64,000 bases of DNA from a bacterium (GTDB lineage: Bacteria; Patescibacteriota; Minisyncoccia; Phycocordibacterales; CALRBL01). The stretch lies in NCBI GenBank assembly GCA_027487075.1, contig JAIYEG010000002.1, positions 79,202 through 143,201 of the forward strand, read 5' to 3'. The notes beneath the pieces are model-generated. The model was not told where the DNA came from. It made no database searches and saw only the letters and a program-made list of their open reading frames with translations. Position 1 is the first letter of the stretch. Each line of letters opens with the position of its first letter. The translations under genes were made by a program, and so were the position numbers. Positions 2,826-47,736 of this stretch are shown piece after piece.

Positions 2826-2844
2826 TTTTGTGGTATTGTGTGGC

Positions 2845-3190: not shown

Positions 3191-3197
3191 ATACATG

Positions 3198-7666: not shown

Positions 7667-7695
7667 CTCTGTAAAGTTTGTGATATAATCTTCGC

Positions 7696-8907
7696 ATGAC
7701 CGAAACGTTAGGTGAAGTATTCGGAGACCTTCTCGTTCAAACGCTCTATGCGTTGTACGTGCTTCTCATTGTGTTTGTACCGATCATCCTCGGCTACATC
7801 TTTTTTAATGTGTGGGTGAAGTATGCACGGGCAAAATTCATATCTGAGCAGTCACACATTCTTCTTGAGTTCAAGCTTCCCAAAGAAATCACTAAATCTC
7901 CCGTTGCAATGGAGATTTTTATCAATGCACTGAGCCAAACTGGGGGCGAAGGAAATTGGTTTGATAGATATGTAAAGGGTGGTATGCGACCGTGGTTCTC
8001 ACTCGAACTCATCTCTCTTGAAGGACAGGTGAAGTTTTTGGTGTGGACACGTAAAGGCTTCAAGAAAAATATTGAGACCCAGCTTTACAGTCAGTATCCC
8101 GATGTTGAGGTGACCGAAGTTCCTGACTATACCGAAAGTATTTCATATGATCCATCAACAAATGAGGTGTGGGGCTGTCAGTTTGTTAAAACAAAAGAAA
8201 GTTTTTATCCAATCAAGACCTACGTTGACTACGGACTCGACAAGGATCCGAAAGAAGAGGTGAAGATAGACCCTATTACTCCCGTGATTGAGCTTCTGGG
8301 CTCACTAGGAACTGGCGAGCAGATGTGGATCCAGATCCTCATTCGTGCACACAAGGATGAATTCGCAAAGCCGGGAACATGGTTTGAAAAAACCGACTGG
8401 AAATATTTTGCGAAGGAGGAAGTAAAGAAAAAATTGAAGCGAGACAAGGGAGAGGGAGAGTCACAGGATCGTCTCACTAAAGGAGAGCAGAAGGCGGTAG
8501 AGGCGATCGAGAAGAGTATTGCAAAGATTCCATTCGATTGTGGTATTCGAGCAGTCTATATTGCTGATAAAGATACATTCAATAAGGCAAATGTCGGAGG
8601 ACTTACCGGATCATTCAAGCAATTTAGTGCACCAGATCTTAATGGCTTCAAGCCAGACAAGACCACATCGTTTGATTTCCCATGGCAAGATATTTTTGGC
8701 ACTAAACTCAAAGAAAAGAAGGAGAAAATCGTAAAATCATACAAAGCACGTGCATTCTTCAAGCCTTTATATCAAGGAAAACATTTCATTATGAATGCCG
8801 AAGAGTTGGTGACAATTTATCATTTCCCAGGACGAGTGTCTCGCACACCGACCTTTACTCGTATTGGATCACGCAAGGGCGATGCTCCATCAAATCTTCC
8901 TATCTAG
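7696..8907 (+). CDS. Membrane-anchored hypothetical protein
   Basis: N-terminal TM segment LLVQTLYALYVLLIVFVPIILGYIFF. No P-loop. It has a start-stop junction with mltG. Confidence 0.5.
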   Translation: MTETLGEVFGDLLVQTLYALYVLLIVFVPIILGYIFFNVWVKYARAKFISEQSHILLEFKLPKEITKSPVAMEIFINALSQTGGEGNWFDRYVKGGMRPWFSLELISLEGQVKFLVWTRKGFKKNIETQLYSQYPDVEVTEVPDYTESISYDPSTNEVWGCQFVKTKESFYPIKTYVDYGLDKDPKEEVKIDPITPVIELLGSLGTGEQMWIQILIRAHKDEFAKPGTWFEKTDWKYFAKEEVKKKLKRDKGEGESQDRLTKGEQKAVEAIEKSIAKIPFDCGIRAVYIADKDTFNKANVGGLTGSFKQFSAPDLNGFKPDKTTSFDFPWQDIFGTKLKEKKEKIVKSYKARAFFKPLYQGKHFIMNAEELVTIYHFPGRVSRTPTFTRIGSRKGDAPSNLPI

Positions 8908-12817: not shown

Positions 12818-13720
12818 TTAGAGATGGATACCGATTATTTTTGCCCACTCACCTTGAAGATATCCGAGCGCGGCGAGCAAAACAGCTTGCTGTCCGATGT
12901 GATCAACGTTGTGCGAGCTAAAATCATACCCCCGACCTGGTACCCCAATGCTGTGCCACTCATTGGGATTTAATCCTGACGCGTCACCTGGACAGGTAAT
13001 AATCAGACCGCCTCTATTGTCACAGACGCTGCAACGGTGCAGATCGAGCCCTACATACGACTCTTTTCCAGTTCTCATCATGTGCACCCAAAGTTCGAAC
13101 ATCATTTTGGAAACGTCGCTTTTTATCATTCCGCGCATAATGCTTGGAAGCATGTTTGCAAAGCCTGGAGAAAAAGACCCGTTTAAGCTAGCACCTCCTG
13201 ACTGCTTCTCCATACATGTTTGAAGGGTGAGAGGCTGATTAAATGACGGTTGAATTTCATTGTTTTCAGGCTCAAATGCGAGCAAGTCAAAGAACAATGC
13301 CAGGCTTGCTCCAAGCGCGTCAGCTTCCTGCCAGCGCAGTTCATAAGTGACACCTCCATCGCAGCTAAAGCAATTCATACCATCATTTTCTCCGGTGCCA
13401 CTGCACGTAGAACAAGTTCCGGTGATATGAGTTACTTTGGGAAAAGGCGCTTCAAAAATTTGAAAGTCCTCGCTCTCTGCAACATACTTGATGACTCCTC
13501 CGAACCCGAAACCACTTTGAAAGGAACGAGAAAAGGAAATGTCATCAGGTATTGAAAGTGAAGATCGAAACCTTCTGACAAAATCAGGCCCCAGGCCCAG
13601 ATCTGCCTCTGCACTCCGAATCACATCTTTTCGGACATGAAAACGTAAGATTTTTTGAACTGGGTCGTAGACAAACGCGTACCAGGCCGGAATCGGCCCT
13701 TCAGTGATAATTCGATTCAT
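12818..13720 (-). CDS. Cys-rich hypothetical protein (zinc-ribbon-like CxxC pairs)
   Basis: CSTCSGTG...CFSCDGG and CSVCDNRGG...CPGD. No family recognised. Confidence 0.5.
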   Translation of the reverse strand: MNRIITEGPIPAWYAFVYDPVQKILRFHVRKDVIRSAEADLGLGPDFVRRFRSSLSIPDDISFSRSFQSGFGFGGVIKYVAESEDFQIFEAPFPKVTHITGTCSTCSGTGENDGMNCFSCDGGVTYELRWQEADALGASLALFFDLLAFEPENNEIQPSFNQPLTLQTCMEKQSGGASLNGSFSPGFANMLPSIMRGMIKSDVSKMMFELWVHMMRTGKESYVGLDLHRCSVCDNRGGLIITCPGDASGLNPNEWHSIGVPGRGYDFSSHNVDHIGQQAVLLAALGYLQGEWAKIIGIHL

Positions 13721-13790
13721 TTTTTAGGTTCTCCGGTTAAGGCTTACGTAGAGGCTACTATAAAGTAGTGTTATTGTGCAATAACACCCA

Positions 13791-15572
13791 TTGTCATATA
13801 CTCGGCTTATGAAAACCAAGATCAAAACTGAGTGGGATCTCAAAAGCCTTTTTTATGAATCTCATGATGATCCTAAGATTGAAAAGGATCTTAAGAAATG
13901 CGAGAAACTTACTGATGACTTTTCAAAAAAGTATAAAGGTGTGAATTTTACAAAGAATGAAGATTCGCTTTTTGCCGCTCTGACTGACTACGAAGAATTG
14001 ATGGGTGATTCTTCAGGAGCGCGAGCGATTCGCTATTTCCAGTACGCACACGATAAGAATGCTGAGGATAAAAAGGCAGAAGCTGCATTACAGCAGCTGA
14101 ACGACCGTCTTACCAAGGCTTTTAATAAAATCATCTTTTTTGAGCTTGAAATCGGGAAAATTCCTAAAATTGATCAGGTACGCGTATTGGAATCAAAAAA
14201 ATTAAAACATTTTGAGTATTTCCTTTCAAAGAGTTTTCAAAGATCAAAATATAATCTTTCTGAGCCTGAAGAAAAAATCCTATCACTCAAGTCGCTTACT
14301 TCTCGAGAGCTTTGGATATCGAGCAATCAAAAATCTATTAGCAAGCAAACGATTGTCTGGAAAGGGGAAATAACACCCATCGCAAAAGCTTCTGCAATGA
14401 TATCAACTCTGCCTTTGAAGGAGCGACGTTCTCTGCATTCGCTTGTATTAAAAAAATTAGAATCAATCAGTGATTTGGCTGAAGCAGAAATAAATGCGGT
14501 ATATATCGATAAGAAAATAAACGATGAGCTTCGCGGCTTTAAGAAGCCTTATGATGCGACACTTTTGTCGCATGAGACAGACGAGAAGATGGTGACTACT
14601 CTTGTAGACACGGTTACGGATAAATTTTCTATAAGCCATCGTTTCTATAAGCTCAAAGCACGATTATTGAAGTTAGAAAAACTAAGCTACGCCGATAGGG
14701 CTGCCGGTATTGGAAAAACGACAAAAAAAGTTGAGTTTGAGGAAGGGTTAGATATTGTAAAGAAATCCTTCGGTGAAATGGATGAAGATTTTGAGAAATT
14801 GCTTGATAGTTTTATAAGAAACGGCCAGATTGATGTATATCCTAAAAAGGGTAAGCGTGGTGGCGCATATTGCTCTGGCACGACTAATCTTCCAACAATG
14901 CTGTTGCTCAACAATATTCCTGAGATGGGCTCTGTTTCTACCTTAGCTCATGAAATGGGTCACGCAATTCATTTTGAGTACTCGAAAAAACAAAGCCCGC
15001 TCTACCAAGATATCACCATAGCGGTTGCTGAAGTGGCGAGCACTTTTTTTGAAGAAGTCATTTTCAATAATTTATTGCCTACCTTATCCAAAAAAGAGCA
15101 GATTATCGCGTTGCATGACAAGATCAATGATGAGATTAGCACTATTTTCCGTCAAATTGCCTGTTTTAACTTTGAGAATGAGTTGCATCAACTTATAAGA
15201 GCAAAAGGCGCACTATCAAAAGAGGAGATAGGTAACGTTCTTAATAAGCACATGAGGTCATACCTTGGTCCAAAAGTTGGCATGACTGAAGAAGATGGAT
15301 ATTTCTTTGTCATGTGGGGTCATATTCGTAACTTTTTTTACGTGTACTCTTATTCATATGGAAATCTCGTCAGCAAGGCGCTCTATAGGAAGTATCAGCA
15401 AGATAATACGTACATAGAAAAGATTAAGTCATTCTTAAGTGCGGGTAATTCAAAAAGCCCTCGCGACATCTTTAATGACATCGGTATCGACACGTCAGAT
15501 CCGAAGTTCTGGGAAGAAGGACTTGCTCAGATCGAAGATGATATCAAGAGACTGGAGAAACTAACGAAATAA
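13791..15572 (+). CDS. pepF: Oligoendopeptidase F (M3B)
   Basis: Zinc motif TLAHEMGHAIHF (HEXXH). Length and layout are typical of PepF. Confidence 0.85.
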   Translation: MSYTRLMKTKIKTEWDLKSLFYESHDDPKIEKDLKKCEKLTDDFSKKYKGVNFTKNEDSLFAALTDYEELMGDSSGARAIRYFQYAHDKNAEDKKAEAALQQLNDRLTKAFNKIIFFELEIGKIPKIDQVRVLESKKLKHFEYFLSKSFQRSKYNLSEPEEKILSLKSLTSRELWISSNQKSISKQTIVWKGEITPIAKASAMISTLPLKERRSLHSLVLKKLESISDLAEAEINAVYIDKKINDELRGFKKPYDATLLSHETDEKMVTTLVDTVTDKFSISHRFYKLKARLLKLEKLSYADRAAGIGKTTKKVEFEEGLDIVKKSFGEMDEDFEKLLDSFIRNGQIDVYPKKGKRGGAYCSGTTNLPTMLLLNNIPEMGSVSTLAHEMGHAIHFEYSKKQSPLYQDITIAVAEVASTFFEEVIFNNLLPTLSKKEQIIALHDKINDEISTIFRQIACFNFENELHQLIRAKGALSKEEIGNVLNKHMRSYLGPKVGMTEEDGYFFVMWGHIRNFFYVYSYSYGNLVSKALYRKYQQDNTYIEKIKSFLSAGNSKSPRDIFNDIGIDTSDPKFWEEGLAQIEDDIKRLEKLTK

Positions 15573-15588: not shown

Positions 15589-17367
15589 ATGACCTCAGCC
15601 GAAATACGCAAGCGATTCATATCATTTTTCGAGAAACGCGGGCACGCCGTGCTTCCTTCGGCATCACTCGTACCTGAAAATGACCCATCAGTACTCTTCA
15701 ATACTGCCGGAATGCAACCGCTCGTACCATACCTTCTCGGCGAAAAGCACCCGCTCGGCACACGTCTCGTGAACTTCCAGAAATGCGTGCGCACAGGCGA
15801 CATCGATGATATTGGCGACAACACACACGCTACCTTCTTCGAAATGATGGGGAACTGGTCGCTCGGCGATTACTTCAAGGAAGACGCTATCAAATGGAGC
15901 TACGAGCTCCTCACTTCAAAAGATGAAGGATTCGGCCTCGATCCACATCGCCTCTACGTGACGGTATTTGAAGGTAACGAAGATGCGCCTCGCGATGATG
16001 AGGCTGCGGCAATCTGGAAAAAATATCTTCCTGAAAACCGCATCTACTACCGACCGGCAGACAAGAATTGGTGGAGCGCGGGTGATAACGGCCCATGCGG
16101 ACCTGACACCGAAATGTTTTACGACGTTACGGGAACGCTCGGCGACATGACGCTTGAAGAGTATCTCAAAGCTGATGATGAGCAGAAAGTTGTTGAGATC
16201 TGGAACGACGTATTCATGGAATACCTCAAGAAAGACGGAAAGGTAGTAGGGAAGCTTGCCAACAAGAACGTGGATACAGGATCAGGATTCGAGCGCATCA
16301 CGATGGTGCTCCAGGGAAAGGATAATATCTTCGACACCGACCTTTTCCTGCCGATCATCAACAAGATCAAGGAATTTACCTCCGTCGATACGACCACCAA
16401 AGAATCTATCCGAGCAATGCGTATTATCGCTGACCATCTTCGCGCTACAACATTTCTTATCGGTGACGGCGTGCTTCCTGGTAATAAGGATCAGGGATAC
16501 ATCCTCCGACGTCTTCTACGACGCGCTGTTCGCTATGCGGATACACTCAACATGAAGCACGGTAGTCTGTTTTGGATTGCAGATACCATTGTGACTGAAT
16601 ACAAGGATGCATATCCGATGCTTATCACCCAGAAGGAGCATATTAAGAGTGAGATAGATAAAGAAGAGCAAAAGTTTCGCTCAACTCTTGCTAAAGGCAT
16701 GAAAGAATTCGAACGTATGGCAACGAGTAGTATTTCGGGTGATGATGCCTTTCTTTTGCTTTCAAGCTATGGATTTCCTATTGATCTCACCAAAGAATTA
16801 GCAAAGGAACGAGGTCTAACGGTAGATGAAAAAGGATTTGAAGAGGCATTCAAAAAGCACCAAGACCTCTCACGCTCAGGATCTGAACAGAAGTTCAAAG
16901 GAGGGCTTTCGGGGACTGGAGAAATGGAAACCCGCTACCACACAGCAACCCATCTTCTCAATGCCGCACTCCGCGAAGTGCTTGGAAATCACATCTCACA
17001 AAAGGGAAGCAACATCACTGCAGAGCGCATGCGCTTCGACTTCTCGCACGGCGCAAAAATGACTGATGAAGAAAAGAAGAAAGTGGAAGTTCTTGTGAAT
17101 CAGAAGATCGATGAAGCGCATCCTGTGACATTCAAAGAGATGCCGAAAGAAGAAGCAGAGCGTATCGGAGCAATCCATGCATTTGGAGACAAGTATGGTG
17201 ACATCGTAAAAGTATATTCGATCGGCAATGAGACCGATGGCTACTTCAGTCGTGAATTCTGTGGAGGTCCGCACGTGGCAAACACGAAAGAGCTCGGCCA
17301 CTTCAAGATCGTGAAGGAAGAAGCAGTCTCTCAAAGCGTGCGACGAATAAAAGCTGTGTTAGAATAG
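15589..17367 (+). CDS. alaS: Alanyl-tRNA synthetase, short form lacking the C-Ala domain
   Basis: N-terminus FISFFEKRGHAVLPSASLVPENDPSVLFNTAGM. Editing-domain HxxxH (RYHTATHLLNAALREVLGNH) and CGGPH are present. Only 592 aa. Confidence 0.9.
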   Translation: MTSAEIRKRFISFFEKRGHAVLPSASLVPENDPSVLFNTAGMQPLVPYLLGEKHPLGTRLVNFQKCVRTGDIDDIGDNTHATFFEMMGNWSLGDYFKEDAIKWSYELLTSKDEGFGLDPHRLYVTVFEGNEDAPRDDEAAAIWKKYLPENRIYYRPADKNWWSAGDNGPCGPDTEMFYDVTGTLGDMTLEEYLKADDEQKVVEIWNDVFMEYLKKDGKVVGKLANKNVDTGSGFERITMVLQGKDNIFDTDLFLPIINKIKEFTSVDTTTKESIRAMRIIADHLRATTFLIGDGVLPGNKDQGYILRRLLRRAVRYADTLNMKHGSLFWIADTIVTEYKDAYPMLITQKEHIKSEIDKEEQKFRSTLAKGMKEFERMATSSISGDDAFLLLSSYGFPIDLTKELAKERGLTVDEKGFEEAFKKHQDLSRSGSEQKFKGGLSGTGEMETRYHTATHLLNAALREVLGNHISQKGSNITAERMRFDFSHGAKMTDEEKKKVEVLVNQKIDEAHPVTFKEMPKEEAERIGAIHAFGDKYGDIVKVYSIGNETDGYFSREFCGGPHVANTKELGHFKIVKEEAVSQSVRRIKAVLE

Positions 17368-23869: not shown

Positions 23870-24235
23870 TCAGTTAGCAAACTGCTTCATACGTGCACGC
23901 AAATTCCTTTTTCCACAGTGAACTGGGATCACTCCCTTGAGACCCCATTGCCCTTGGAAGGCAATAAACATCTCAGGTAGTGGTACCTGATCAACGAGAA
24001 AGACGATTGCGAGCGACGGATGACTACGATGGATACGAGAAAGCGCCTCTGCTTCGGCGGGTACTTGAAGAAGGTTTTCGCGACATACAAGCTCGTGGCA
24101 TACCGGAGTTTGCTCGAGCATACTTTCAGCAGTAGCAATCCGGAAACACCACTGGACATCGATATGTGAGCGGACAAGGTGATTTTGCCAGGCCCTTTGC
24201 AGCAACCGATTTGGTTCAGCAATTATGACATTCAT
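23870..24235 (-). CDS. Hypothetical protein, possibly a degenerate receiver (REC)-like domain
   Basis: MNVIIAEPNRLLQ...SLAIVFLVDQ has REC-like spacing, but the acidic pocket is not conserved. Confidence 0.3.
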   Translation of the reverse strand: MNVIIAEPNRLLQRAWQNHLVRSHIDVQWCFRIATAESMLEQTPVCHELVCRENLLQVPAEAEALSRIHRSHPSLAIVFLVDQVPLPEMFIAFQGQWGLKGVIPVHCGKRNLRARMKQFAN

Positions 24236-28905: not shown

Positions 28906-29139
28906 TTACGACTTCTTTTGCTCGCTTTTCGTCTTGATGAACAGGTTCAAGACAGTGCCAATGAATGCGAGCCACAGAATACACCCGATGAAGGGATAAA
29001 AAGGGTCGGTATGGAATCCGGTCCAGTGGTATCCTGTCTTTTGGCTAACGTAAGCCTCGATTGAGGGGAACGCATAGAAGAAGCCGAACAGTCCGTTGGT
29101 GACTGCGAAGGCGATAACTATAATCTTAAGGACGAGCAT
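28906..29139 (-). CDS. Small membrane protein (about 78 aa, 2 TM)
   Basis: The internal ATG at 29139 has GGAGAT 7 nt upstream. MLVLKIIVIAFAVTNGLFGFFYAF...FIGCILWLAFIGTVLNLFI. A T-run-backed hairpin lies downstream. The ORF-track start at 29316 is likely over-extended. Confidence 0.45.
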   Translation of the reverse strand: MLVLKIIVIAFAVTNGLFGFFYAFPSIEAYVSQKTGYHWTGFHTDPFYPFIGCILWLAFIGTVLNLFIKTKSEQKKS

Positions 29140-29354
29140 GATGTGGTGATCTCCTGGTATGTAATTTACATGCGTAGGTGCGCATGGGTTCGGTAAGACC
29201 ATAGCATATTTTAAGTAGACAGGCACCTTTTGTCCCATAGGGAGACTCGCGGAGCGCGACGGCGCGAGCGTGAAGAATTTTATACCAATAAAATATCTGT
29301 GCTCCCGAAGGGACAAAAGGTGCCTGTCCCCATTTAATTTGATATGGTGTCAGC

Positions 29355-30041
29355 ATGCCTCAGACAGATGCGTGGGAGCGAGAGTATCGCAATCCAAAAC
29401 TCGTCACCAAAAAAGCCGAGCCACAGAACGATGTAAAACGTTTTTTGAAGTGGCTCAAAAAAGAGCAGGGTGTTGCACTCGAACATTTACACGTTCTTGA
29501 TCTTGGGTGTGGTACCGGTCGCAATGCAAACTATCTTGCGGAACTAGGATGCATAGTCACCGGCTTTGAAATATCTTCAACCGCACTTCGCATTGCACAA
29601 GAGCGTGCCACTGAACTCGGAGTAAGCCCTTCCTACCATCTCCGTAGTATCGGCGCTCCATACCAACTCTCCGATGACAGTATTGATCTCGCTCTTGATG
29701 TCACCTCTTCGAATTCTCTGAACGAGCACGAGCGATCAGTATATCTCACTGAGACAGCACGTGTACTTAAAACAGGAGGATATATATTTGTGCGCGCACT
29801 GTGCAAAGAAGGGGATGCGAATGTCAAAGAATTACTAAAACGGAACCCCGGATCAGAATATGATACCTATGTGAATACTCAAATGGGGCTCACTGAACGC
29901 GTCTTTAGTCGAGAAGATTTTGTTGCAACTTATTCACCACTGTTTTCTATCGAGCATCTCGAAAAGAAAAGCGGGTATGCACACTTTAATGGTCGCATCT
30001 ATAAGCGTAACTATTGGCTCGCGTATCTAAAAAAGATATAA
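29355..30041 (+). CDS. Class I SAM-dependent methyltransferase
   Basis: VLDLGCGTGRNANYL (motif I) and post-I EISSTALRIA. Confidence 0.8.
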   Translation: MPQTDAWEREYRNPKLVTKKAEPQNDVKRFLKWLKKEQGVALEHLHVLDLGCGTGRNANYLAELGCIVTGFEISSTALRIAQERATELGVSPSYHLRSIGAPYQLSDDSIDLALDVTSSNSLNEHERSVYLTETARVLKTGGYIFVRALCKEGDANVKELLKRNPGSEYDTYVNTQMGLTERVFSREDFVATYSPLFSIEHLEKKSGYAHFNGRIYKRNYWLAYLKKI

Positions 30042-30048
30042 TCTACCT

Positions 30049-30420
30049 ATGCACATTTTGTTATCGTTGATTCTTTCGTTTTATCCCGCACTCTTCGTCT
30101 ATCAATCACTGCCACTTGCGTGGGCAAAACAACTCGACATTCTAACACTCAAGTTTCTCGCGTTTGCTCTTATTTTTGCTTGCACATATCTTGTGATGAA
30201 AAAGTTTGTCTCGCTCGGGTACCACATTCCGCGATCAGGCATCCTTCGTGGTGTGCTTCTCACGGTGTTTACCGTCGTCCTTGCTCTCATTAGTTTCTAT
30301 GTATTCCTCCCAGGCGAAACCGTCTACGCATCACCAAAAATTCTCGATAGCTATGTTCTCAAAAATCCTTACATGTTCTTGTGGCTTATTGCGCCTTTTG
30401 TGTATTTGTTTTTTGAGTAG
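30049..30420 (+). CDS. Membrane protein (about 4 TM), hypothetical
   Basis: Hydrophobic throughout. Tightly packed between the methyltransferase and the ALDH-like gene. Confidence 0.5.
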   Translation: MHILLSLILSFYPALFVYQSLPLAWAKQLDILTLKFLAFALIFACTYLVMKKFVSLGYHIPRSGILRGVLLTVFTVVLALISFYVFLPGETVYASPKILDSYVLKNPYMFLWLIAPFVYLFFE

Positions 30421-30433
30421 TAATTAAAACTAT

Positions 30434-32197
30434 ATGAATTTACAACCATACTCAGCAATAAGTTTTGATGATTGCAATAAGTTAGCGCTTACACTTGCCA
30501 ACCTTATTATTTCACAAAGAACTGAACTTGTTACTTTACTTACAACATATGAAAGTCACGAGGTGGCTGAAGACGAAATTAGCAGATCATTGGATCTTTT
30601 ACAGAATCTTCATGAAAACAAGGAATATTTCAAATTTCGCGTAGGACAAATTGCCGCATTTCTTCCACGAAACCAACCTTTATATGCGTTTAGCTGTTTT
30701 GTAATTGTGCCAGCACTTCAGGCAAGTGAGGTGCATTTTCGTATTCCACATCCCATGAAGGGATTTTTCCCACAGCTTATGAAAATGTTGCGTATTGAGG
30801 AGTTGTTCCCTCATGTAAAACCATCACCAAAGGAGCGCATGGATTTCCTCAAGGAACGAACCTCATTGTATGTTCATAAAGAAACGGGTGAGACAAAACC
30901 TATCACGGACGCAGTTATTTTTACAGGAACTCCTGCACATGCCGACCAGCTACGTCTTGTGTTCGACAAGCGAACACTTTTCATTACAAACGGTGCTGGA
31001 CACAATCCAATTGTTATCGCAGAGGGAGCAGACATAAAAGAAGCCGTTCAAGCAGCTACCACCCTTATTTTATACAACCAAGGACAAGACTGTGCGGCAC
31101 CAAACTCTATTTTGGTTCACAAAAATGTGTACGAATGCTTTTTAAAACATCTCACTAAAACTCTTAGAAACGTGAAGATTGGTCCTTATCATGACCACAC
31201 TTCACAAGTTGGCCCTATTAGCGACAGTGATGACCTCGTAAGAATCCAAGAAATATTGGTCACACATCGTGAATGGATTCATGAGAGTACAAGAGGAGTA
31301 ATTCGCACCAAAGATTCGATTGTTGAACCAACCATCATTTGTAAACCACTTTCTGAGGGAGGAAATTATGACGAATCATTCGCTCCAATCTTCTTTGTAC
31401 AGCGATATGAAGAGGACGAAGATCTTGCTCAGTATTTTGAAAACAAGCGCTACGCCCAGCACGCTATGTACGTAACACTCTACGGAGAAAGTCCTTACAC
31501 TGAAAGCCTTGTCGACAAAAAATATGATGGACGTATCCTTCATAGTGAATCAACCTTCGTTAAAAACACCCATCTTCATGCTTACGGAATCGAACGAGGA
31601 GTGCAGCCATACGGAGGTTTCGGCTACGGCGCATCAAGCATCAGTATTAGTGGAAAAGTAATTGCGATCCCTACACTTCCACAGCGTGATATTTATGAAT
31701 GGGTTGCAGAGCCATACATCAGTGATAAAAATCTCCTCAAGAATCAAACTGAAAATCTTGAAATCAGAAACAAGCATATTGATAAGCTACTCAAATTCAA
31801 AACAGAGGTTCTTGATAAAAAGGATGTTCCTCTATATGCAGGTAAAACATTTTTTGACACAGCATCTCTCAAGGATGTAAAAGATAGGCGCTTTATCAAG
31901 GTAGAAGATAGATATATTCACCATCTTAATCAAACACCACATGTTGAGTTTATTGCCACACTCACTCCGATAGATATTGCAGACATTCGAAAACTTCTTG
32001 AACTTCTCAAAGAAAAGCACCAACATCCACTTGAAACATTCACTACTAAGCTCTACGCTGTTCCTCCAAAGGAAAAACAGCTTATATTCTTCCAAACACT
32101 CTACCATCTGCTGTTTAGTAAAAACTCAGGCCCAAAACTCGGTCACTTCCTGTGGGAAATTGATAACGATAGCATCTGGCACCTTTTGGATATATAA
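30434..32197 (+). CDS. Divergent aldehyde dehydrogenase-superfamily protein with a C-terminal extension of about 170 aa
   Basis: ILYNQGQDCAAPNSILVHKNVY resembles the ALDH catalytic Cys loop (FxNxGQxCxA). FAPIFFV resembles EIFGPV. GFGYGASSISISG resembles the GG...SG motif. AT-rich. Confidence 0.5.
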   Translation: MNLQPYSAISFDDCNKLALTLANLIISQRTELVTLLTTYESHEVAEDEISRSLDLLQNLHENKEYFKFRVGQIAAFLPRNQPLYAFSCFVIVPALQASEVHFRIPHPMKGFFPQLMKMLRIEELFPHVKPSPKERMDFLKERTSLYVHKETGETKPITDAVIFTGTPAHADQLRLVFDKRTLFITNGAGHNPIVIAEGADIKEAVQAATTLILYNQGQDCAAPNSILVHKNVYECFLKHLTKTLRNVKIGPYHDHTSQVGPISDSDDLVRIQEILVTHREWIHESTRGVIRTKDSIVEPTIICKPLSEGGNYDESFAPIFFVQRYEEDEDLAQYFENKRYAQHAMYVTLYGESPYTESLVDKKYDGRILHSESTFVKNTHLHAYGIERGVQPYGGFGYGASSISISGKVIAIPTLPQRDIYEWVAEPYISDKNLLKNQTENLEIRNKHIDKLLKFKTEVLDKKDVPLYAGKTFFDTASLKDVKDRRFIKVEDRYIHHLNQTPHVEFIATLTPIDIADIRKLLELLKEKHQHPLETFTTKLYAVPPKEKQLIFFQTLYHLLFSKNSGPKLGHFLWEIDNDSIWHLLDI

Positions 32198-32208
32198 TTA
32201 CAACAATA

Positions 32209-33681
32209 ATGAGTAAACTTTTTAGACTTCTAAAAAATAGTAAAGGTCCAGTACTTCTTGGAATCACCATTGTGCTTGCAACCATTTTTGTAATTCTTTT
32301 TTCTTCTCGACTTCTCTATATACGTACGGTCGATCTTCTCACGGTGAATCTTCGAGAACGTATTCAGGCAATCTCTACAACTGCAGCAGCAACACTCAGT
32401 TATCAGGACATTGAAGCCCTACACAAAGAAGAGGATTGGTTGAAGCCTGAGTGGGCATATGTGGTTAACAAGCTCCATAGAATAAAGTATACAAATAAGG
32501 ATATTGTATTCATGTATATCTTTAGAAAAAATGCACAAGACCCAACAAAGATGGAATTTGTGGCTGATGCCGACTCAATTGATCCCTACGCAAACAGTGG
32601 TAGTGATATTTCAAAATATGTTGATGTAAATCGTGATGGAAAGGTTGAACCAGAAGGCCCAGATAAGCTCCAGTGGCCAGGACAACCGTATCCAGAGGCT
32701 GCAGATATTCCTGAAACATTCATAGCGTATGAGCGCCCCATTACCAGCAAAGACATTTACTCAGATGAATATGGTTCAGTTATTACTGGATATAGTCCTA
32801 TAAAAAATGATAACGGAGAAACCGTTGCTGTTCTTGCGGTAGACATGAAAGCTGACGACTTTCTAAAAATAACCACACAAACTCTTCAACCCTTCGTTAT
32901 TTTTATTGTATTTCTTACACTCACCATCTCTATTCTTACCATTATTCTTATGTTCTCTTGGCGAAGGTATGCTCATTTTCTTGAAGAGTCAAATAAAGAA
33001 AAGTCAGAATTTATCTCATTTGCTTCTCATCAAATTCGAACACCACTTACTTCTATCAGAGGCTTTTCATCCAACCTTCTTGAAGGAGATTATGGGAGTC
33101 TTCCACCACAAGTGCGTGAAATTATACTTAAAATACTGGTGAGATCGCAGGAAGTCGTTTCCCTCATCGGACAATACCTCGATAAGTCAAAAATGGAGCT
33201 CGGGCAGCTTGATTATGATTTTAAACCATTCGATATTACGAGTCTCACACAACAAATCGTAAACGAGTTTACTCCGGCAGCCCAGCAACAAGGAATTGAA
33301 TTGCGTTTTGATCAATCTAAAACACCAGATTGTGTCGTAAAAGGAGATCAAGGTAAAATCAAAGAACTTCTCAGCAACTTACTCGACAACTCTATTAAGT
33401 ATACGCCGAGCGGATATGTCGAGGTTACAATAGAAAAAAAGGATCAAAAAGCACTCGTATATATCAAAGACACAGGGGTAGGAATGAGCACTGATACCAT
33501 CAAGGGTCTTTTCCAAAAGTTTGGACGAGGTAAGGATGCAGCAAAGACGAATATTCTCGGAACAGGACTCGGACTCTATCTCGCACAAATATTCGCTGTT
33601 GCACATAAGGGTAAAGTTATAGCCCAGTCAGAAGGTGAGGGTAAAGGCTCAACATTCATTACCGAACTTCCTCTTGCATAG
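32209..33681 (+). CDS. Sensor histidine kinase (TM - extracytoplasmic domain - TM - HisKA - HATPase_c)
   Basis: H-box FISFASHQIRTPLTSIRGF, N-box LLDNSIKYT, G-boxes DTGVGM and GTGLGL. No response regulator is adjacent. Confidence 0.85.
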   Translation: MSKLFRLLKNSKGPVLLGITIVLATIFVILFSSRLLYIRTVDLLTVNLRERIQAISTTAAATLSYQDIEALHKEEDWLKPEWAYVVNKLHRIKYTNKDIVFMYIFRKNAQDPTKMEFVADADSIDPYANSGSDISKYVDVNRDGKVEPEGPDKLQWPGQPYPEAADIPETFIAYERPITSKDIYSDEYGSVITGYSPIKNDNGETVAVLAVDMKADDFLKITTQTLQPFVIFIVFLTLTISILTIILMFSWRRYAHFLEESNKEKSEFISFASHQIRTPLTSIRGFSSNLLEGDYGSLPPQVREIILKILVRSQEVVSLIGQYLDKSKMELGQLDYDFKPFDITSLTQQIVNEFTPAAQQQGIELRFDQSKTPDCVVKGDQGKIKELLSNLLDNSIKYTPSGYVEVTIEKKDQKALVYIKDTGVGMSTDTIKGLFQKFGRGKDAAKTNILGTGLGLYLAQIFAVAHKGKVIAQSEGEGKGSTFITELPLA

Positions 33682-33732: not shown

Positions 33733-34083
33733 TTACTTGATGTGAAGCATCACCACTGACGCAATTCCCATACACAGTCCAATCAGTTGAGTACCGGACA
33801 TATTTTGGTAATCGCGCTGGAAGATGATTCCAACCAAGACAGTGCCGATGATCAGCATCCCGTCAATCTTTCCTGAGGCAGTAGACAGTCCACCACCTTG
33901 TTGGGTCACCACGCCGAACGTGATGAACACCAAAGGAGAGACAACGAGGAGTGCGAAAAGCCAGGCATTGTACCAGCCGTGCTCATTCACATTCGACGCC
34001 CATCGTTGACCGATGAGGTTGCCGAAAATGGCAAAAGCGACCGCAGCGAGGGTTGAGATCCAGGAGACGAGAGTTGTATTCAT
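33733..34083 (-). CDS. Small 4-TM membrane protein (SMR/DMT-like)
   Basis: 116 aa, four hydrophobic helices. Family not established. Confidence 0.45.
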   Translation of the reverse strand: MNTTLVSWISTLAAVAFAIFGNLIGQRWASNVNEHGWYNAWLFALLVVSPLVFITFGVVTQQGGGLSTASGKIDGMLIIGTVLVGIIFQRDYQNMSGTQLIGLCMGIASVVMLHIK

Positions 34084-35397: not shown

Positions 35398-36480
35398 ATG
35401 AAGCTTTTTTCTAAAAGAAACAAACCAATATCAAATCATGGATTTGCTTATAGACCGAATAGATTTCATGAAGTTAGCACTATTGGCAACAGATACAGAC
35501 TAGTTTCTAAAGAAACTAGGAATAGAATGGTTTCTGAAATAAAGTTCTTAACATCTAGTGATGATTTTCTAGAGTGGTTTATTTTATTTGAAAATGAAGA
35601 TAAAGGAAAAATTTTTTTTGATAAAAATAAAATTGATAAATTTTCATTATCTGAATTAGGTTACAAAATGTCTGATTTTTTCGATTTTGAAGATTTTGCA
35701 ATGTTAAAACAACGACAAAAACCTGATGATCCCGAAACAGAGTATTTAGACGATTACAAACTTTTTGATATAGCGGAAATTACAATACTATTTTCATTGG
35801 ATAATAAAAGAAGTGCAGTTATAGATAGATTCAATTCTATATTCATTGAAGAGGACACTGATTTTCAAATAATAGAACATCTTATCACCCGTAAATCTGG
35901 TGACAGTATAAAAACATTGCTAAATTTGTTAAAAGACGAAAATTTAAAAAAGAAATTAAAAATGTTTTTTGAATCGTACGATAACTACGATTTTATTAAT
36001 TCTGCTAAAACATCGGCTGATATTCTTAATATTATATTTTCGGATTATATAAAAAATGAGAAATCAAAAAAGATTTCTGAATTATGTAACAAATTAGCTG
36101 ATAAGATTGTAGTGTCAGATACCAAAGGAGATAAGAGAAAAAGATTCCTTGAGTACATGAACGATTTACTTAAGTTATCTAAAAACTTAAGTAATGATAT
36201 CTATGATGTTCGTCATACTGAAAAATCAACAATAATACTTTCTAATGAAAATATCTATAAGTTAATTTCGAATCAAAACATATCTTTAGTTGAGCTAGTA
36301 TTAACCACATTGAAAGATGACTATGTTCTTGGAGATAACTGGGAAAAAATTAAAGACGATTACATTACGAAATATAATATTAATAAATTATCAAGACAAG
36401 TAATTAAAAAGAGAGTTATTCCTACAATTTTAAAAAGCAACGTGGATGACGAGATCGATCCGGATGACATTCCATTTTAA
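35398..36480 (+). CDS. Hypothetical protein, extremely AT-rich, start-stop coupled to tyrS
   Basis: Its ATG directly abuts the tyrS TAA. 360 aa, Lys/Asp/Phe/Ile-rich, no motif recognised. Composition is sharply different from tyrS and ABC-F. Confidence 0.55.
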   Translation: MKLFSKRNKPISNHGFAYRPNRFHEVSTIGNRYRLVSKETRNRMVSEIKFLTSSDDFLEWFILFENEDKGKIFFDKNKIDKFSLSELGYKMSDFFDFEDFAMLKQRQKPDDPETEYLDDYKLFDIAEITILFSLDNKRSAVIDRFNSIFIEEDTDFQIIEHLITRKSGDSIKTLLNLLKDENLKKKLKMFFESYDNYDFINSAKTSADILNIIFSDYIKNEKSKKISELCNKLADKIVVSDTKGDKRKRFLEYMNDLLKLSKNLSNDIYDVRHTEKSTIILSNENIYKLISNQNISLVELVLTTLKDDYVLGDNWEKIKDDYITKYNINKLSRQVIKKRVIPTILKSNVDDEIDPDDIPF

Positions 36481-41575: not shown

Positions 41576-43366
41576 ATGCAAAAAGTAACAGACGTTCTTA
41601 TCAATGCCAAGCGGCTCAATGCAATCTTGTGGAAGAACCGCAAGAGCTTTTTGCTATTCTCTATCGTATTCTCCATCATCAGTGCCCTCATTCCGTATGC
41701 AACATCGGGAGTGAACGCACTTCTCGTCAATCATCTCACTACGACTGCGGGGGCGGGCATTTCAGATACACTTCTCGTCCTCGCTCTCACCTCAGCCATC
41801 CTTTTCTTCATCCCAGACATCGTCAGCTCAATCAATACATGGGTAGAAAAACGCATTTGGGTCGACATCGGCCAAATCATTCAACTTCAGTACCTCAAGA
41901 AAAAGGGAGAGATTGATATTCAAACCTACGAAGACCCTAAATTTCTTGATACGCTCAACAAAGCAGAAGATCGTGGTGTGTGGCCGACCACAAACTTTCT
42001 TAGCCTTCAATTCAACGCATTCGGCAATATCATTGGCCTCATCACAGGACTTGGGATTCTCTTGTTCTTCAACTGGATGATCTGTCTTCTCATCATTATT
42101 GCTATCATTCCTCAATTTATCGTGGAGATTAAGTTCAACAACGACACATGGGGAATTTGGAATGCAGATGCTGCAACCCGCCGAAGATTCAATAATCTGC
42201 GTGATCATTTCGAACAAAAGAATTGGCTCATTGAGCTCAAACTCTTCCAGAATGTACACCTATTCTACACACAAATCAAAGAGATTCTCATTTCATTTAA
42301 TGACAAACAACGAAACATCGAGCGTACCAAACTTTTCTTTGAAATTGGTTCGACCATACTAAGTGGAGCAATCATCGGTGGTGTCATCATCTGGGTAGTC
42401 CTCAATGTTGCTAAGGGGGACTCAAGTATTGGCGCTCTTTTGTTTCTCATGACTTCTATTAGCCAACTTCAAGGTTCACTCATCGCATTCCTCAGCCGTC
42501 TTGCACGTCTTCACGAATACAGCTTGTATTGTGCAGACATATTTAAGGTACTCAGTACTTCACCCGCACTTCCGCGTGCTCAGCATCCTGTCACCCTCAC
42601 GGGAGAAACTCCTGAAATCATCTTTGAGAACGTCTCATTCGCATATCCCTCAAGCCCTGAAAAGCTCACGCTCGAACACATTTCACTCACCATTCGCAAA
42701 GGAGAGAAATTTGCGCTGGTAGGAGAAAACGGTGCAGGGAAGACCACCTTCGTGAAGCTTTTGTGCCGTATCTACGATCCCACCGAGGGACGTATTCTCG
42801 TCGATGGTGTTGACCTTCGCAAAATCGACCTCGAGAGCTGGTACAAGACCTTGGGAATTTTGTTCCAAGAATATGCGCCGTATAAGTTTGCAGTGAAGGA
42901 CTCCATTGCACTTGGTCGTTCAGATGACCCCTTCGACTTTGAGCGTATTCAAAATGCTGCACTTGCCAGTGAGTCTGATAGCTTTATCCAACAGTGGCCA
43001 CAGAAGTACGATCAACAGCTTGGCACAGAGTTTGATCAAGGAATCGACCCATCAAAAGGTCAACAACAACGTCTTGCTATTGCTCGCCTCATGCACCGCA
43101 AAGCAGGAGTGCTTATTCTTGATGAGCCGACCGCTGCTATCGACGCAGAAGCAGAGAAGAAGATTTTTGACCAAATCGAACGAGAGGCGAAGAACCAGAC
43201 CGTCATTCTTATTTCTCACAAGTTTTCAACGGTAAAGAACGCAGATCGTATCTGCGTATTCAAAGGAAAGACCGTGCATGAGATGGGTTCACACGAGGAA
43301 TTGCTTCGTAAGAAAGGGACGTATGCGAGGTTGTTTAGTGAGCAAGCGGAGGCGTATACTATCTAA
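41576..43366 (+). CDS. ABC exporter, fused TMD-NBD (MsbA/type I exporter-like)
   Basis: Six-TM N-terminal domain, Walker A GENGAGKTT, signature LSKGQQQRLAIAR, Walker B LILDEPTAAID. Confidence 0.85.
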   Translation: MQKVTDVLINAKRLNAILWKNRKSFLLFSIVFSIISALIPYATSGVNALLVNHLTTTAGAGISDTLLVLALTSAILFFIPDIVSSINTWVEKRIWVDIGQIIQLQYLKKKGEIDIQTYEDPKFLDTLNKAEDRGVWPTTNFLSLQFNAFGNIIGLITGLGILLFFNWMICLLIIIAIIPQFIVEIKFNNDTWGIWNADAATRRRFNNLRDHFEQKNWLIELKLFQNVHLFYTQIKEILISFNDKQRNIERTKLFFEIGSTILSGAIIGGVIIWVVLNVAKGDSSIGALLFLMTSISQLQGSLIAFLSRLARLHEYSLYCADIFKVLSTSPALPRAQHPVTLTGETPEIIFENVSFAYPSSPEKLTLEHISLTIRKGEKFALVGENGAGKTTFVKLLCRIYDPTEGRILVDGVDLRKIDLESWYKTLGILFQEYAPYKFAVKDSIALGRSDDPFDFERIQNAALASESDSFIQQWPQKYDQQLGTEFDQGIDPSKGQQQRLAIARLMHRKAGVLILDEPTAAIDAEAEKKIFDQIEREAKNQTVILISHKFSTVKNADRICVFKGKTVHEMGSHEELLRKKGTYARLFSEQAEAYTI

Positions 43367-43367
43367 T

Positions 43368-44960
43368 ATGAAAACTGGAAAGGCTGAATCACTCGAACAA
43401 ATGAAGAAAGCCGGTTTCAATGTGCCTGATTTTTTTATTGTTGAGCAGAGGCCAACCAAAGAAACAAGTGACACATTTCTCGCCAAGTTTGACGCGCTTA
43501 AGACCAAAAGTGTTGCAGTACGATCTTCAACAAATGTTGAAGATGGGGAACATAATTCTTGGGCAGGGCAGTTCACTTCACACTTGAATGTGGCAAAAGA
43601 AAATCTTATTGAGAAAATAAATAGTTGTTTTGATTCAGTTCATACAACAAACGTTACATCATATAAAAATTCATTTGGTATAGAGAAGGAGATTAGTATG
43701 AATGTTATCGTTCAAAAAATGATTCATGCTGACTATGCAGGTGTAGCATTTTCAGTAAATCCGATAACTAAAAAATCTGATGTTTTAATTGAAGTTGTTA
43801 AAGGTACTGGTGAATCACTAGTTTCTGGCAAAGTAACCCCCCAAACATATCACATTGATAAGACAACTAAACAAATTGATATTGTTAGTAGTGATTCTTC
43901 AGATACCCTAAATTCATTTCCGATTTTACAACTATTTGAAATTATTTTAAAAATAGAATCATTTTATAACTTTCCGTGTGACATTGAATGGGCATACGAA
44001 AAAGATACTTTTTATATTCTCCAATGTCGCCCTATAACAACTATTAAGGACACTGACTTAATCGAAAGTTATATTGCAACACAAAGAATGATCTCACTCG
44101 GTACCCGAGGCCCTGATACACTTGAAGCAAAACTTAAAATAATGGGATGGTCAACAAATTTTAAGAAGGAGTTTGGGGTTGGTTACCGTACCATAGTTAT
44201 CAATTCTGAAGGTAAGCAATACGGTGATTTTGAGAGTCTTGAAAAGATTGATTTCTTTTTTGATAACAGGGATATTTCTTTTGCAAAAAAGTACATCAAG
44301 AAAATGTCAGATTTAAATAGCGACCTGAATGATAAAATATTAAGATTTCCTGATGAAGAATTTATTGAAGAACTTTCTTATCTTTTTACCTACTTTAGCG
44401 CAATTCGTTGGACAATAGAAAATGTTTACAAAAAATCTTCAGCAGAAGATAAAAAATTAATTGATGATTGGAGAAACGACGAAACTATATTTTCGTCACT
44501 GGAGTTATATGGAAAAGTTCACCCTCTTTCTGATCCAGATTCTTGGAGTGTAGTGGGAATCGATGACCAGATCACCATCTTACCAAAAGTAATTAACTGC
44601 GCCATTAAAAGTGAGGCATCCTCTTCTCATGAAATTAAGGGTCAGACAGCTTATCCCGGTATAATTTCTGGCACAGCAAGAGTTGCACTAACGGACGAAA
44701 TTAGAGATTCGATTAAAGAGGGAGATATTATTGTAGCACCGATGACAACGCTCGATTTTACCCACGCCATGTCAATTGCAGCAGGCTTTGTTACTGATGA
44801 AGGTGGAATTACCTGCCATGCGGCTATAGTTGCGAGAGAATTGAAGAAACCTTGCATCATTGGAACACGTAACGGTACTCAAATAATTAAGGATGGTGAC
44901 ATTGTTGAGCTTGATGCAACTAACGGAATTGTGAGAATACTTAATGTACCGGAAGCATAG
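43368..44960 (+). CDS. PEP-utilising phosphotransferase (PPDK_N ATP-grasp N-terminus plus PEP-utilisers swivel-His C-terminus, Rph/PEP-synthase-like architecture)
   Basis: N-terminus ...VAVRSSTNVEDGEHNSWAGQFTSHLNV...GVAFSVNPITKKSDVLIEVVKGTGESLVSGKVTP. C-terminus ...GGITCHAAIVARELKKPCIIGTRNG. An AT-rich middle domain of about 250 aa is unknown. The ATG is 2 nt after the ABC exporter stop. The ORF-track start at 43278 is over-extended. Confidence 0.7.
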   Translation: MKTGKAESLEQMKKAGFNVPDFFIVEQRPTKETSDTFLAKFDALKTKSVAVRSSTNVEDGEHNSWAGQFTSHLNVAKENLIEKINSCFDSVHTTNVTSYKNSFGIEKEISMNVIVQKMIHADYAGVAFSVNPITKKSDVLIEVVKGTGESLVSGKVTPQTYHIDKTTKQIDIVSSDSSDTLNSFPILQLFEIILKIESFYNFPCDIEWAYEKDTFYILQCRPITTIKDTDLIESYIATQRMISLGTRGPDTLEAKLKIMGWSTNFKKEFGVGYRTIVINSEGKQYGDFESLEKIDFFFDNRDISFAKKYIKKMSDLNSDLNDKILRFPDEEFIEELSYLFTYFSAIRWTIENVYKKSSAEDKKLIDDWRNDETIFSSLELYGKVHPLSDPDSWSVVGIDDQITILPKVINCAIKSEASSSHEIKGQTAYPGIISGTARVALTDEIRDSIKEGDIIVAPMTTLDFTHAMSIAAGFVTDEGGITCHAAIVARELKKPCIIGTRNGTQIIKDGDIVELDATNGIVRILNVPEA

Positions 44961-46320: not shown

Positions 46321-47736
46321 ATGAACAACGATACACGTACGTACATAAAAGACCTCAGTGGCAAGGTGGGGAATGAAGTCACCATCAAGGGATGGGTGGA
46401 TATTCGTCGCGACCAAGGAAAACTTATTTTCCTCGATTTTCGTGACATGACGGGCAAGGTGCAGGGAGTGATTCTCCCTAATGCAAAAGAAGCGCACGAA
46501 GTGGGTACTCAGCTCCGCTCTGAATGGGTGGTAGAAGTGAAGGGGAAGGTAAATCCTCGTCCAGAAAAAAACGTGCAGAAGGACAAGCTCAACGGCGACA
46601 TCGAGCTCGAAATTCTTTCGATCACCATTTTGAACCAGGCAGAAACTCCAGGATTCGACATCGGAAACGATACCCGTGTCGTCAACGAAGACACTCGCCT
46701 CGAACAACGCTACCTCGATCTCCGCAGTGAACGTCTTCAAAACAACATTCGCGCTCGCCACAAAGCCATCAAGCTCGTACGTGATGTACTCGACACAGAA
46801 GGCTTCATCGAAATTGAGACCCCACTCCTCACCAAATCAACTCCTGAAGGTGCCCGCGACTTCATCGTGCCGTCACGCCTCGAACGTGGCACCTTCTACG
46901 CACTTCCTCAGTCACCGCAGCAGTACAAGCAGCTCCTCATGGCTGCTGGCATGGAAAAATATTTCCAGATCGCACGTTGCATGCGTGATGAAGACACGCG
47001 TGGAGACCGTCAGCCAGAGTTTACTCAGCTCGATATGGAGATGAGCTTCGTGCGCGAAGACGACATTATGGCGTTGAACGAAAAACTCCTCATCGAGCTC
47101 GTCACCAAGCTTTATCCTCACAAGAAAATCCAAGAAATCCCATTCCCACGCATTTCATACAAGGACGCTATGGAAAAGTACGGCAATGACCGCCCTGACA
47201 TCCGTACCAACAAAGAAGATCCGAACTTGCTCGCATTCTGCTGGGTGGTAGATTTCCCGATGTTCGAAAAGAACGACCAAGGAGGCTGGACTTTCACCCA
47301 CAATCCGTTCTCAGCAACTCAAAAAGACCACGAGGAGGCTCTCATGAATGCAAAAGCAGATGACGCCAACCTCACCCACATTAAAGCTGCACAGTACGAC
47401 ATCGTCCTCAACGGCTATGAGATCGGTGGCGGGAGCGTGCGCAATCACGACCCTGAAAAACTCCTCAAGGTATTTGAGATTATGGGATACGAGCGCTCAA
47501 ACGTTGAACAGAACTTTGGTCACATGCTCAAAGCTTTTCGTTCAGGAACACCACCACACGGGGGTATTGCATGGGGTTTTGACCGCCTCATGATGCTCCT
47601 TCAGAACGAGCCAAACATCCGCGAAGTGATCGCATTTCCTAAAACAGGGGAGGGTCGTGATCCGATGATGAAGAGTCCTGATACTGTTTCTGAGGCGCAG
47701 CTTCGAGAGCTCGGTATTGACATAAAGCAAAAATAA
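46321..47736 (+). CDS. aspS: Aspartyl-tRNA synthetase (bacterial type, no GAD insertion domain)
   Basis: OB-fold N-terminus, motif 2 FQIARCMRDEDTRGDRQPEFTQLDMEMSF, motif 3 GGIAWGFDRLMMLL. 471 aa. Confidence 0.9.
   Translation: MNNDTRTYIKDLSGKVGNEVTIKGWVDIRRDQGKLIFLDFRDMTGKVQGVILPNAKEAHEVGTQLRSEWVVEVKGKVNPRPEKNVQKDKLNGDIELEILSITILNQAETPGFDIGNDTRVVNEDTRLEQRYLDLRSERLQNNIRARHKAIKLVRDVLDTEGFIEIETPLLTKSTPEGARDFIVPSRLERGTFYALPQSPQQYKQLLMAAGMEKYFQIARCMRDEDTRGDRQPEFTQLDMEMSFVREDDIMALNEKLLIELVTKLYPHKKIQEIPFPRISYKDAMEKYGNDRPDIRTNKEDPNLLAFCWVVDFPMFEKNDQGGWTFTHNPFSATQKDHEEALMNAKADDANLTHIKAAQYDIVLNGYEIGGGSVRNHDPEKLLKVFEIMGYERSNVEQNFGHMLKAFRSGTPPHGGIAWGFDRLMMLLQNEPNIREVIAFPKTGEGRDPMMKSPDTVSEAQLRELGIDIKQK

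Follow-up and report, generated by a model that had tools for sequence, protein, structure and literature searches.

Background

Very few types of enzyme are known to divert amino acids from charged tRNA to purposes outside translation, namely glutamyl-tRNA reductase (GluTR, or HemA), the Fem/MprF transferases, the L/F-transferase and the cyclodipeptide synthases. In GluTR, which works together with a class I synthetase of the GluRS/LysRS-I type, a cysteine attacks the aminoacyl-tRNA ester and NADPH reduces the resulting thioester, yielding an alpha-amino aldehyde. Here we describe a protein with the fold of the aldehyde dehydrogenases (ALDHs) that may deserve a place beside this system. The protein (587 aa) is encoded at 30434-32197 (+) of the window, i.e., the whole stretch of 64,000 nucleotides that was analysed (positions 79,202 to 143,201 of contig JAIYEG010000002.1, assembly GCA_027487075.1), which comes from a member of the Patescibacteriota (Candidate Phyla Radiation, CPR), bacteria with tiny genomes. 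It joins an ALDH-like catalytic part to a C-terminal module of class I lysyl-tRNA synthetase (LysRS-I), an arrangement that we call the short form, and we show that the ALDH clade to which it belongs is distinct and evolutionarily tied to this synthetase.

Several other described systems share one or another trait with this locus. The LuxE-LuxC pair offers a precedent for an adenylating partner that feeds an ALDH-type reductase; unlike LuxC, the window protein keeps Asn169 and Glu399 (ALDH2 numbering), both lost in LuxC, and its partner is a tRNA synthetase and not an acyl-protein synthetase. CqsA/CqsS and LuxM/LuxN, in which an autoinducer synthase is encoded next to its sensor kinase, are comparable in that an enzyme, a putative exporter and an extracytoplasmic sensor kinase form a conserved unit in the present loci, although there is no homology, and that the kinase ligand would be the enzyme product is a proposal of the present work. 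With LysRS-I itself, the last 80-140 residues of the window protein are homologous. In LysX, MprF, which consumes Lys-tRNA, is fused to a dedicated LysRS paralogue (PMC2922099), and one of the architectures described below (form C) follows the same Rosetta-stone logic; however, LysX unites a class II LysRS with a GNAT-type transferase, whereas here a class I LysRS meets an ALDH-fold enzyme, and the window protein has kept the anticodon-binding end only. In ALDHs, the general base Glu268 holds the water that hydrolyses the thioester (PMC8160307), while ALDH6 (MSDH) keeps the Cys and the Asn without this Glu, and its thioester is not hydrolysed but passed to coenzyme A (CoA) (PMC12041015). The window protein resembles ALDH6 in that the Cys and the Asn are kept and the Glu is lost, but differs from it (PDB 1T90) by an identity of only ~15%, by the lack of any NCBIfam ALDH model at its cut-off and by the tRNA-synthetase module, which is absent from ALDH6; in addition, its acceptor or donor is presumably tRNA-linked and not CoA.

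Results

An ALDH fold in which the general base is replaced

A preliminary description of this DNA, made from the sequence letters and a list of open reading frames (ORFs), had placed the 587-aa protein in the ALDH superfamily. This assignment holds both by sequence (Pfam Aldedh, PF00171, E 2.7e-26, 92.6 bits against a cut-off of 23) and by fold, with an Aldedh alignment limited to residues 155-348 (profile positions 203-402 of 461). No NCBIfam ALDH model came near its cut-off (the best reached 68.6 bits against 615), and no match to LuxC (PF05893) was obtained for the window protein at E<=0.1. The ALDH-fold catalytic part covers residues 1-425 (30434-31708, +), as delimited on a motif map against human ALDH2; its N-terminus is shorter than that of classical ALDHs, and its last elements are PYGG, an insertion of 15 aa and TLPQRDI, the signature of the clade.

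For this map we used the human ALDH2 sequence, whose landmark positions were checked by index. Asn169 corresponds to N80, Lys192 to R103, Gly245 to G165, Cys302 to C220, Glu399 to E314 and Phe401 to F316. The catalytic-Cys loop NQGQDCAAPN, already noticed in the preliminary description, lies at residues 215-224, and its Cys220 (codon at 31091-31093, +), which aligns with the catalytic Cys302, is invariant within YNQGQDCAAPN. Likewise, Asn80 (codon at 30671-30673, +), the counterpart of the oxyanion-hole Asn169, is invariant within LPRNQP among 31 homologues and in all three architectures of the clade. The residues that contact NAD(P) are retained at the sequence level (R103, which is Arg or Lys across the clade, together with G165, E314 and F316). 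The cofactor motifs, which had been called divergent, are so only in part, since FTG (Gly245), Glu399 and Phe401 are kept and Lys192 is Arg; the real departure is found at Glu268, where ELGGKSP is represented by TNGAGHNP and Asn186 (codon at 30989-30991, +) stands in place of the general base of the hydrolytic ALDHs. Indeed, Asn occupies this position in every sequence examined, regardless of the architecture, and the loss of Glu268, as in ALDH6, implies that a covalent acyl-enzyme should need resolving by something other than water. Note that Cys220, Asn80, the NAD contacts and many more active-site residues are invariant despite an overall identity of ~50%. In databases, the homologues carry generic names only, either 'aldehyde dehydrogenase family protein' or 'lysyl-tRNA synthetase class I', and the latter name is wrong for the ALDH-like protein.

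The C-terminal extension is a module of class I LysRS

A C-terminal extension of about 170 aa had also been reported, and we find that the ALDH fold ends near residue 425 and is followed by ~160 aa. What had been missed is the identity of this extension, which is the anticodon-binding module of LysRS-I. Indeed, residues ~451-587 (31784-32197, +) form an anticodon-binding-type helical domain derived from the C-terminus of LysRS-I, and the tail matches this synthetase by sequence and by structure. A profile built from 25 tails had a single match in the PDB, the LysRS-I of P. horikoshii (1IRX, residues 447-517, E 3.3e-9); hhalign placed the tail on residues 442-506 of a bacterial LysRS-I, where Pfam Anticodon_2 lies at 433-520; and in BLASTP the window residues ~451-587 aligned with the final 135-150 residues of ALDH-LysRS fusion proteins, at E values between 1e-14 and 6e-11. 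Pfam itself reports no family in the tail. The window protein has no PF01921 match, no HIGH-like or KMSKS-like motif and no catalytic Rossmann domain, and from the lack of HIGH, KMSKS and PF01921 it follows that the ALDH-like protein is not a synthetase.

Three architectures tie the clade to LysRS-I

The relatives were collected as 80 loci from a scan of one genome per species, and they fall into three architectures, all of which share the Glu268-to-Asn replacement and the clade signature (PYGG, 15-aa insertion, TLPQRDI). Form A, the short form present in the window, comprises proteins of ~600-625 aa in 41 Patescibacteria loci, two of which (L042 and L031) encode a stand-alone LysRS-I within 4 kb. 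In form B, also found in CPR genomes, the ALDH-like part is fused before a complete LysRS-I (L040, L041, L043 and L048; 977-1117 aa) or its gene directly precedes a separate LysRS-I gene (L046 and L049); as an example, the LysRS part of L041 reaches 369 bits with TIGR00467 (cut-off 147.55). Altogether, the ALDH-like gene is fused, adjacent or close to a full LysRS-I in 8 CPR loci. In form C, the ALDH-like domain is preceded by a divergent LysRS-I paralogue that has both HIGH and KMSKS, either within one fused protein (~940-985 aa) or as a gene just upstream, and this was observed in 30 of 30 loci, with Photorhabdus, Xenorhabdus, Brenneria, Pseudomonas and several actinomycetes as hosts; a protein search added Vibrio cholerae, V. 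vulnificus and Photobacterium. The Photorhabdus fusion reaches 26 bits with Pfam LuxC (cut-off 21).

Taken over the whole sample, LysRS-I is fused or adjacent in all 38 related loci other than the short form, across phyla, an association that had escaped the preliminary description. Since the domain order is reversed between the two fused forms (ALDH-LysRS in B, LysRS-ALDH in C), functional coupling is indicated and not an accidental fusion. The ALDH-like family is large, with more than 500 clusters in Patescibacteria in addition to the fusions found in insect and plant pathogens and in some V. cholerae and V. vulnificus genomes. A full-text search of the literature retrieved no description of an association between class I LysRS and ALDH, and neither tRNA nor lysyl appears anywhere in a review of the ALDH superfamilies from 2025.

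Conserved neighbours and transporters

The window protein belongs to four ORFs on the + strand at 29355-33681, all of them present as described earlier: a class I S-adenosylmethionine (SAM) methyltransferase gene (29355-30041, 228 aa), a gene for a membrane protein without family (30049-30420, 123 aa), the ALDH-like gene, and a sensor histidine kinase gene (32209-33681, 490 aa). The gaps had been given as 8 to 14 nt, which are coordinate differences; the untranslated gaps measure 7, 13 and 11 nt. The ALDH-like gene had been called AT-rich, which is correct to a modest extent (GC content 0.399 against 0.448 for the window), and the kinase gene is similar (0.395). The four genes had been presented as one block, and our analysis of neighbour conservation (tblastn of the window proteins against the loci and de novo clustering of neighbouring ORFs) upholds only part of it. 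The unit conserved in about 40 Patescibacteria loci consists of the ALDH-like protein, the sensor kinase and a protein with four transmembrane (TM) helices that resembles the drug/metabolite transporter (DMT) and small multidrug resistance (SMR) proteins. Of the 39 short-form loci that could be evaluated, 31 have the kinase gene as the next gene downstream, on the same strand. The third partner is in the window a 116-aa protein encoded beyond the four ORFs, at 33733-34083 (-), where its gene is relocated and inverted; in 27 of 41 loci a homologue immediately precedes the ALDH-like gene in the same orientation, and in 2 more it is inverted. The wider synteny (DnaK-DnaJ ... TrpRS) is partly conserved too.

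The two remaining genes fall outside this conserved module and are lineage-specific. The methyltransferase call itself is correct (Methyltransf_25, E 2.4e-16, 60.6 bits against a cut-off of 27; Methyltransf_11, 58.7 against 21.2; also Methyltransf_31), with no NCBIfam model at its cut-off; a counterpart of the gene is missing from the CPR loci, and elsewhere there are just two weak matches, both in actinomycete loci and neither of them adjacent. The 123-aa membrane protein could be assigned to no family of Pfam or NCBIfam, and none of the 80 related loci encodes a homologue. Members of the 116-aa family match, below the cut-off, EamA (12 of 28), TMEM234 (11 of 28) and SMR (9 of 28), all of the DMT clan, and no sequence match to the family was found in the PDB. 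A strong promoter-like site (11 of 12 matches) precedes the 116-aa gene at 34128-34100; it is the exception in a promoter and terminator scan of the block, in which sites were no commoner than in shuffled sequence.

No kinase adjoins forms B and C. In form C, a 385-aa transporter of the major facilitator superfamily (MFS_1) follows in 21 loci, and the chromosomal context of this LysRS-ALDH plus MFS cassette differs between genera. In most Photorhabdus loci the MFS partner is missing and rdgC is next instead. We also noted that in Photorhabdus luminescens (L054) the ~1.7 kb before the LysRS-ALDH fusion (6690-8380) hold no ORF of at least 90 aa and no Rfam match.

The sensor kinase and its candidate regulators

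The kinase of the window matches Pfam HisKA (E 9.7e-14) and HATPase_c (E 9.3e-22), and its boxes are invariant (H274, N394, DxGxG at 421-425 with D421/G423/G425, F435, and GxG at 453-455 with G453/G455). It has more than 1100 homologues, and the downstream kinases of the short-form loci share 40-60% identity with it over the full length. Its extracytoplasmic sensor domain (residues 37-229; 32317-32895, +) contains more invariant positions than the kinase core, among them Y103, R106, D120, the DVNRDG loop, LQWPGQ, Y184/D186, Y195 and D212. An AlphaFold2 (AF2) model made with database homologues (pLDDT 83.4) displays a long N-terminal helix and a five-stranded sheet with an inserted loop of 60 aa, which carries DVNRDG, and the second TM helix continues into the DHp helix; the predicted topology of the sensor domain is PDC/Cache-like, while Pfam Cache matches are weak (18.4 against a cut-off of 27.7). 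A 701-aa relative of the kinase (P0204) was considered as an enzyme-kinase fusion and rejected, as it is a kinase with an extra cytoplasmic insertion. The 136-aa membrane ORF at 28906-29316 (-), between dnaJ and the methyltransferase gene, weakly resembles the 7TM region found in histidine kinases (E 0.0028, which does not reach the cut-off) and is not conserved in related loci.

It had been stated that the kinase lacks a cognate response regulator nearby, and this agrees with our searches of the 64-kb window for a receiver (REC) domain, all of which were negative (Pfam; phmmer with CheY, PhoB and six CPR REC proteins; a REC hidden Markov model (HMM) with --max). The ORF at 23870-24235 (-), previously taken for a degenerate REC-like protein, is not one by our searches: it has no Pfam or NCBIfam family, stays outside the REC-HMM matches even at E<=50 and has no homologue in the 80 loci. 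The term 'orphan' was nevertheless too strong for this kinase, as a single-domain REC protein stands beside the module in 6 of the 41 related loci. In L035, a REC-only protein (13316-13690; PF00072, E 2.7e-19) directly follows the kinase, and in L047 two tandem single-domain REC proteins do so (13320-14121). These proteins, which have no output domain, are the best candidates for the cognate regulators of the family.

Other features of the window

Several aminoacyl-tRNA synthetase genes (Ala, Tyr, Trp-type and Asp) are located in the window, and two of the enzymes, AspRS and AlaRS, are shortened. The class II enzyme at 46321-47736 (+) was examined as a LysRS candidate and rejected, being AspRS; it has 471 aa, matches the 590-aa bacterial model in two stretches and is probably without the insertion domain. 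AlaRS (15589-17367, +; 592 aa) ends at the second additional domain. Directly after the TyrRS stop codon, with no gap, starts a 360-aa ORF (35398-36480, +) with a GC content of 0.265 against 0.448 for the window. It matches no family of Pfam or NCBIfam, lacks homologues in the 80 related loci and may be foreign DNA. A 560-aa protein (43278-44960, +) carries PPDK_N and the mobile domain of phosphoenolpyruvate (PEP)-utilising enzymes, apparently without the C-terminal PEP/pyruvate domain. The only Rfam match in the window at the gathering threshold is a class A RNase P RNA at 2843-3194 (+) (RF00010, 119 bits against 100), and ARAGORN found no tRNA gene in the 64 kb. A defence system was considered and rejected, as PADLOC yielded only generic methyltransferase and ATPase-domain matches. 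The match of the methyltransferase (29355-30041, +) to the PADLOC model mad2 (E 6e-16) most likely reflects generic methyltransferase similarity, and the other components of that system are not nearby.

Discussion

A proposed tRNA-dependent reduction

Considering the fold, the active site and the tie to LysRS-I together, the best reading of the window protein, which we hold tentatively and at somewhat less than an even chance, is that of a non-hydrolytic ALDH-type enzyme that would act on lysyl-tRNA(Lys), with a product that would leave the cell and might be detected by the kinase. The most likely reaction on this substrate would be reduction to lysine aldehyde. In such a scheme, the C-terminal module would dock tRNA(Lys), presumably charged by a separate LysRS-I in this host and by the fused LysRS-I in its relatives, and Cys220 would attack the aminoacyl ester of Lys-tRNA(Lys), giving a lysyl-thioester enzyme that could not be hydrolysed. 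Reduction of this thioester by NAD(P)H would then yield 2,6-diaminohexanal, i.e., lysine aldehyde, or a derivative formed from it by cyclisation or dimerisation. More speculatively, the product would leave through the small transporter (the MFS protein in proteobacteria and actinomycetes), and the co-conserved kinase might sense this product or a related extracellular cue through its sensor domain.

We favour the reductive direction since the only use of fusing a complete, ATP-dependent synthetase to the enzyme would be to provide it with an activated acyl group. The reading as a whole is also supported by the transporter partners in two lineages (DMT-like in CPR, and MFS_1 in the 21 non-CPR loci), by the kinase adjacent in 31 of 39 loci and by its unusually conserved sensor domain. 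The mechanism proposed here would follow the logic of LuxE/LuxC and of GluTR, the latter being a functional analogue only: unlike GluTR, the window protein has an ALDH fold and no GluTR match in Pfam or NCBIfam, the amino acid would be lysine, and the tRNA module has been borrowed from a synthetase.

Several points weigh against a lysyl-tRNA reductase. The tRNA binding is a prediction from homology and fold alone. No LysRS is encoded in the 64-kb window; no tRNA(Lys) gene, lysine riboswitch or T-box was found near the genes, in the window or in at least 70 loci; and no further biosynthetic gene is linked. Form B is surrounded by housekeeping genes, which suggests that the ALDH domain of the long CPR proteins could serve translation and not metabolite synthesis. 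The adjacency of the kinase could in part reflect conserved synteny among related genomes. We know of no pathway that uses lysine aldehyde in these organisms. Finally, ALDH6, which displays the closest catalytic pattern, works oxidatively (PMC12041015).

Alternative readings

This last point leads to an oxidative alternative, which we consider unlikely, in which an aldehyde would be converted into a thioester as in ALDH6 and the acyl group then passed to an acceptor other than CoA. This could be the amino group of either lysine or Lys-tRNA, which would give N-acyl-lysine, or else the 3' end of tRNA(Lys). The catalytic pattern is indeed that of ALDH6, i.e., oxidative with transfer to an acceptor, engineered amide-forming ALDHs (PHBDD entries) are among the closest Foldseek matches, and a tRNA-binding module would position the acceptor. 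However, no gene producing an aldehyde is linked, and an acyl-tRNA made oxidatively would render the fused ATP-dependent synthetase redundant, an objection which the N-acylation variant escapes.

The distribution of the kinase bears on a second alternative. It accompanies the short form alone, in which the synthetase core has been lost, and this form might make no metabolite and instead read the charging of tRNA(Lys) or NAD(H), acting with the kinase in a lysine-sensing circuit of an auxotrophic CPR cell. No DNA-binding regulator lies nearby and the few adjacent regulators are REC-only, which would fit such a role. However, the invariance of Cys220, Asn80, the NAD contacts and other active-site residues at ~50% identity is the pattern of an active enzyme, and we regard a purely regulatory protein as improbable.

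A third possibility, modification of the cell envelope, is suggested by the 4-TM partner, which resembles the SMR/EamA half-transporters, and by the precedent of a LysRS paralogue fused to an enzyme consuming Lys-tRNA, namely MprF-LysRS in actinomycetes (PMC2922099). Lysine from Lys-tRNA would be transferred through a Cys thioester to a lipid or wall acceptor, with the DMT-like protein as flippase and the kinase sensing envelope stress (cf. MprF/LysX, ArnE/F and GraS). This is highly improbable in our view, given that the NAD(P)-contact residues are conserved, that aminoacyl transfer is without precedent in the ALDH fold and that the partner in proteobacteria is an ordinary MFS transporter. 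An ordinary divergent ALDH with an unrelated tail and neighbours held by synteny only, close to the preliminary description minus its functional block, would agree with the Pfam and NCBI name ('aldehyde dehydrogenase family protein' and nothing further) and with the partly conserved DnaK-DnaJ ... TrpRS synteny, but is the least credible of all and already largely refuted by the absence of Glu268 in every member, by the LysRS-I identity of the tail in sequence and structure, by the fused or adjacent LysRS-I in the 38 loci other than the short form, and by the distance to any NCBIfam ALDH model.

Significance

Returning to lysyl-tRNA reduction, the findings can be joined into one wider proposal, which we put forward as doubtful when taken as a whole. 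The clade would be a lysyl-tRNA reductase. Aminoacyl-tRNA reductases would then comprise, besides GluTR, a second kind, with an independent origin on the ALDH fold and recruited to tRNA(Lys) by the class I LysRS module. In Paceibacteria, the amino aldehyde or a compound derived from it would be exported and serve as a signal for the Cache-type kinase, and in the hosts of form C the fusion and its MFS transporter would provide the same metabolite by a minimal and mobile pathway of two genes.

If it is true that an ALDH-fold enzyme is wired to class I LysRS in this manner, a new type would be added to the few enzymes that take amino acids from charged tRNA, together with a chemistry that is new as well (non-hydrolytic acyl transfer or the formation of an amino aldehyde), and if the tRNA-dependent reduction is real, it would define a new class among the enzymes that depend on aminoacyl-tRNA. 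The two-gene cassette of the proteobacteria lends itself readily to expression and testing in E. coli. For CPR bacteria, about whose physiology hardly anything is known, the module described here offers a concrete candidate, open to testing, for a metabolite that is exported and has its own sensor; should the wider proposal hold, it would represent a small-molecule signalling circuit in these bacteria.

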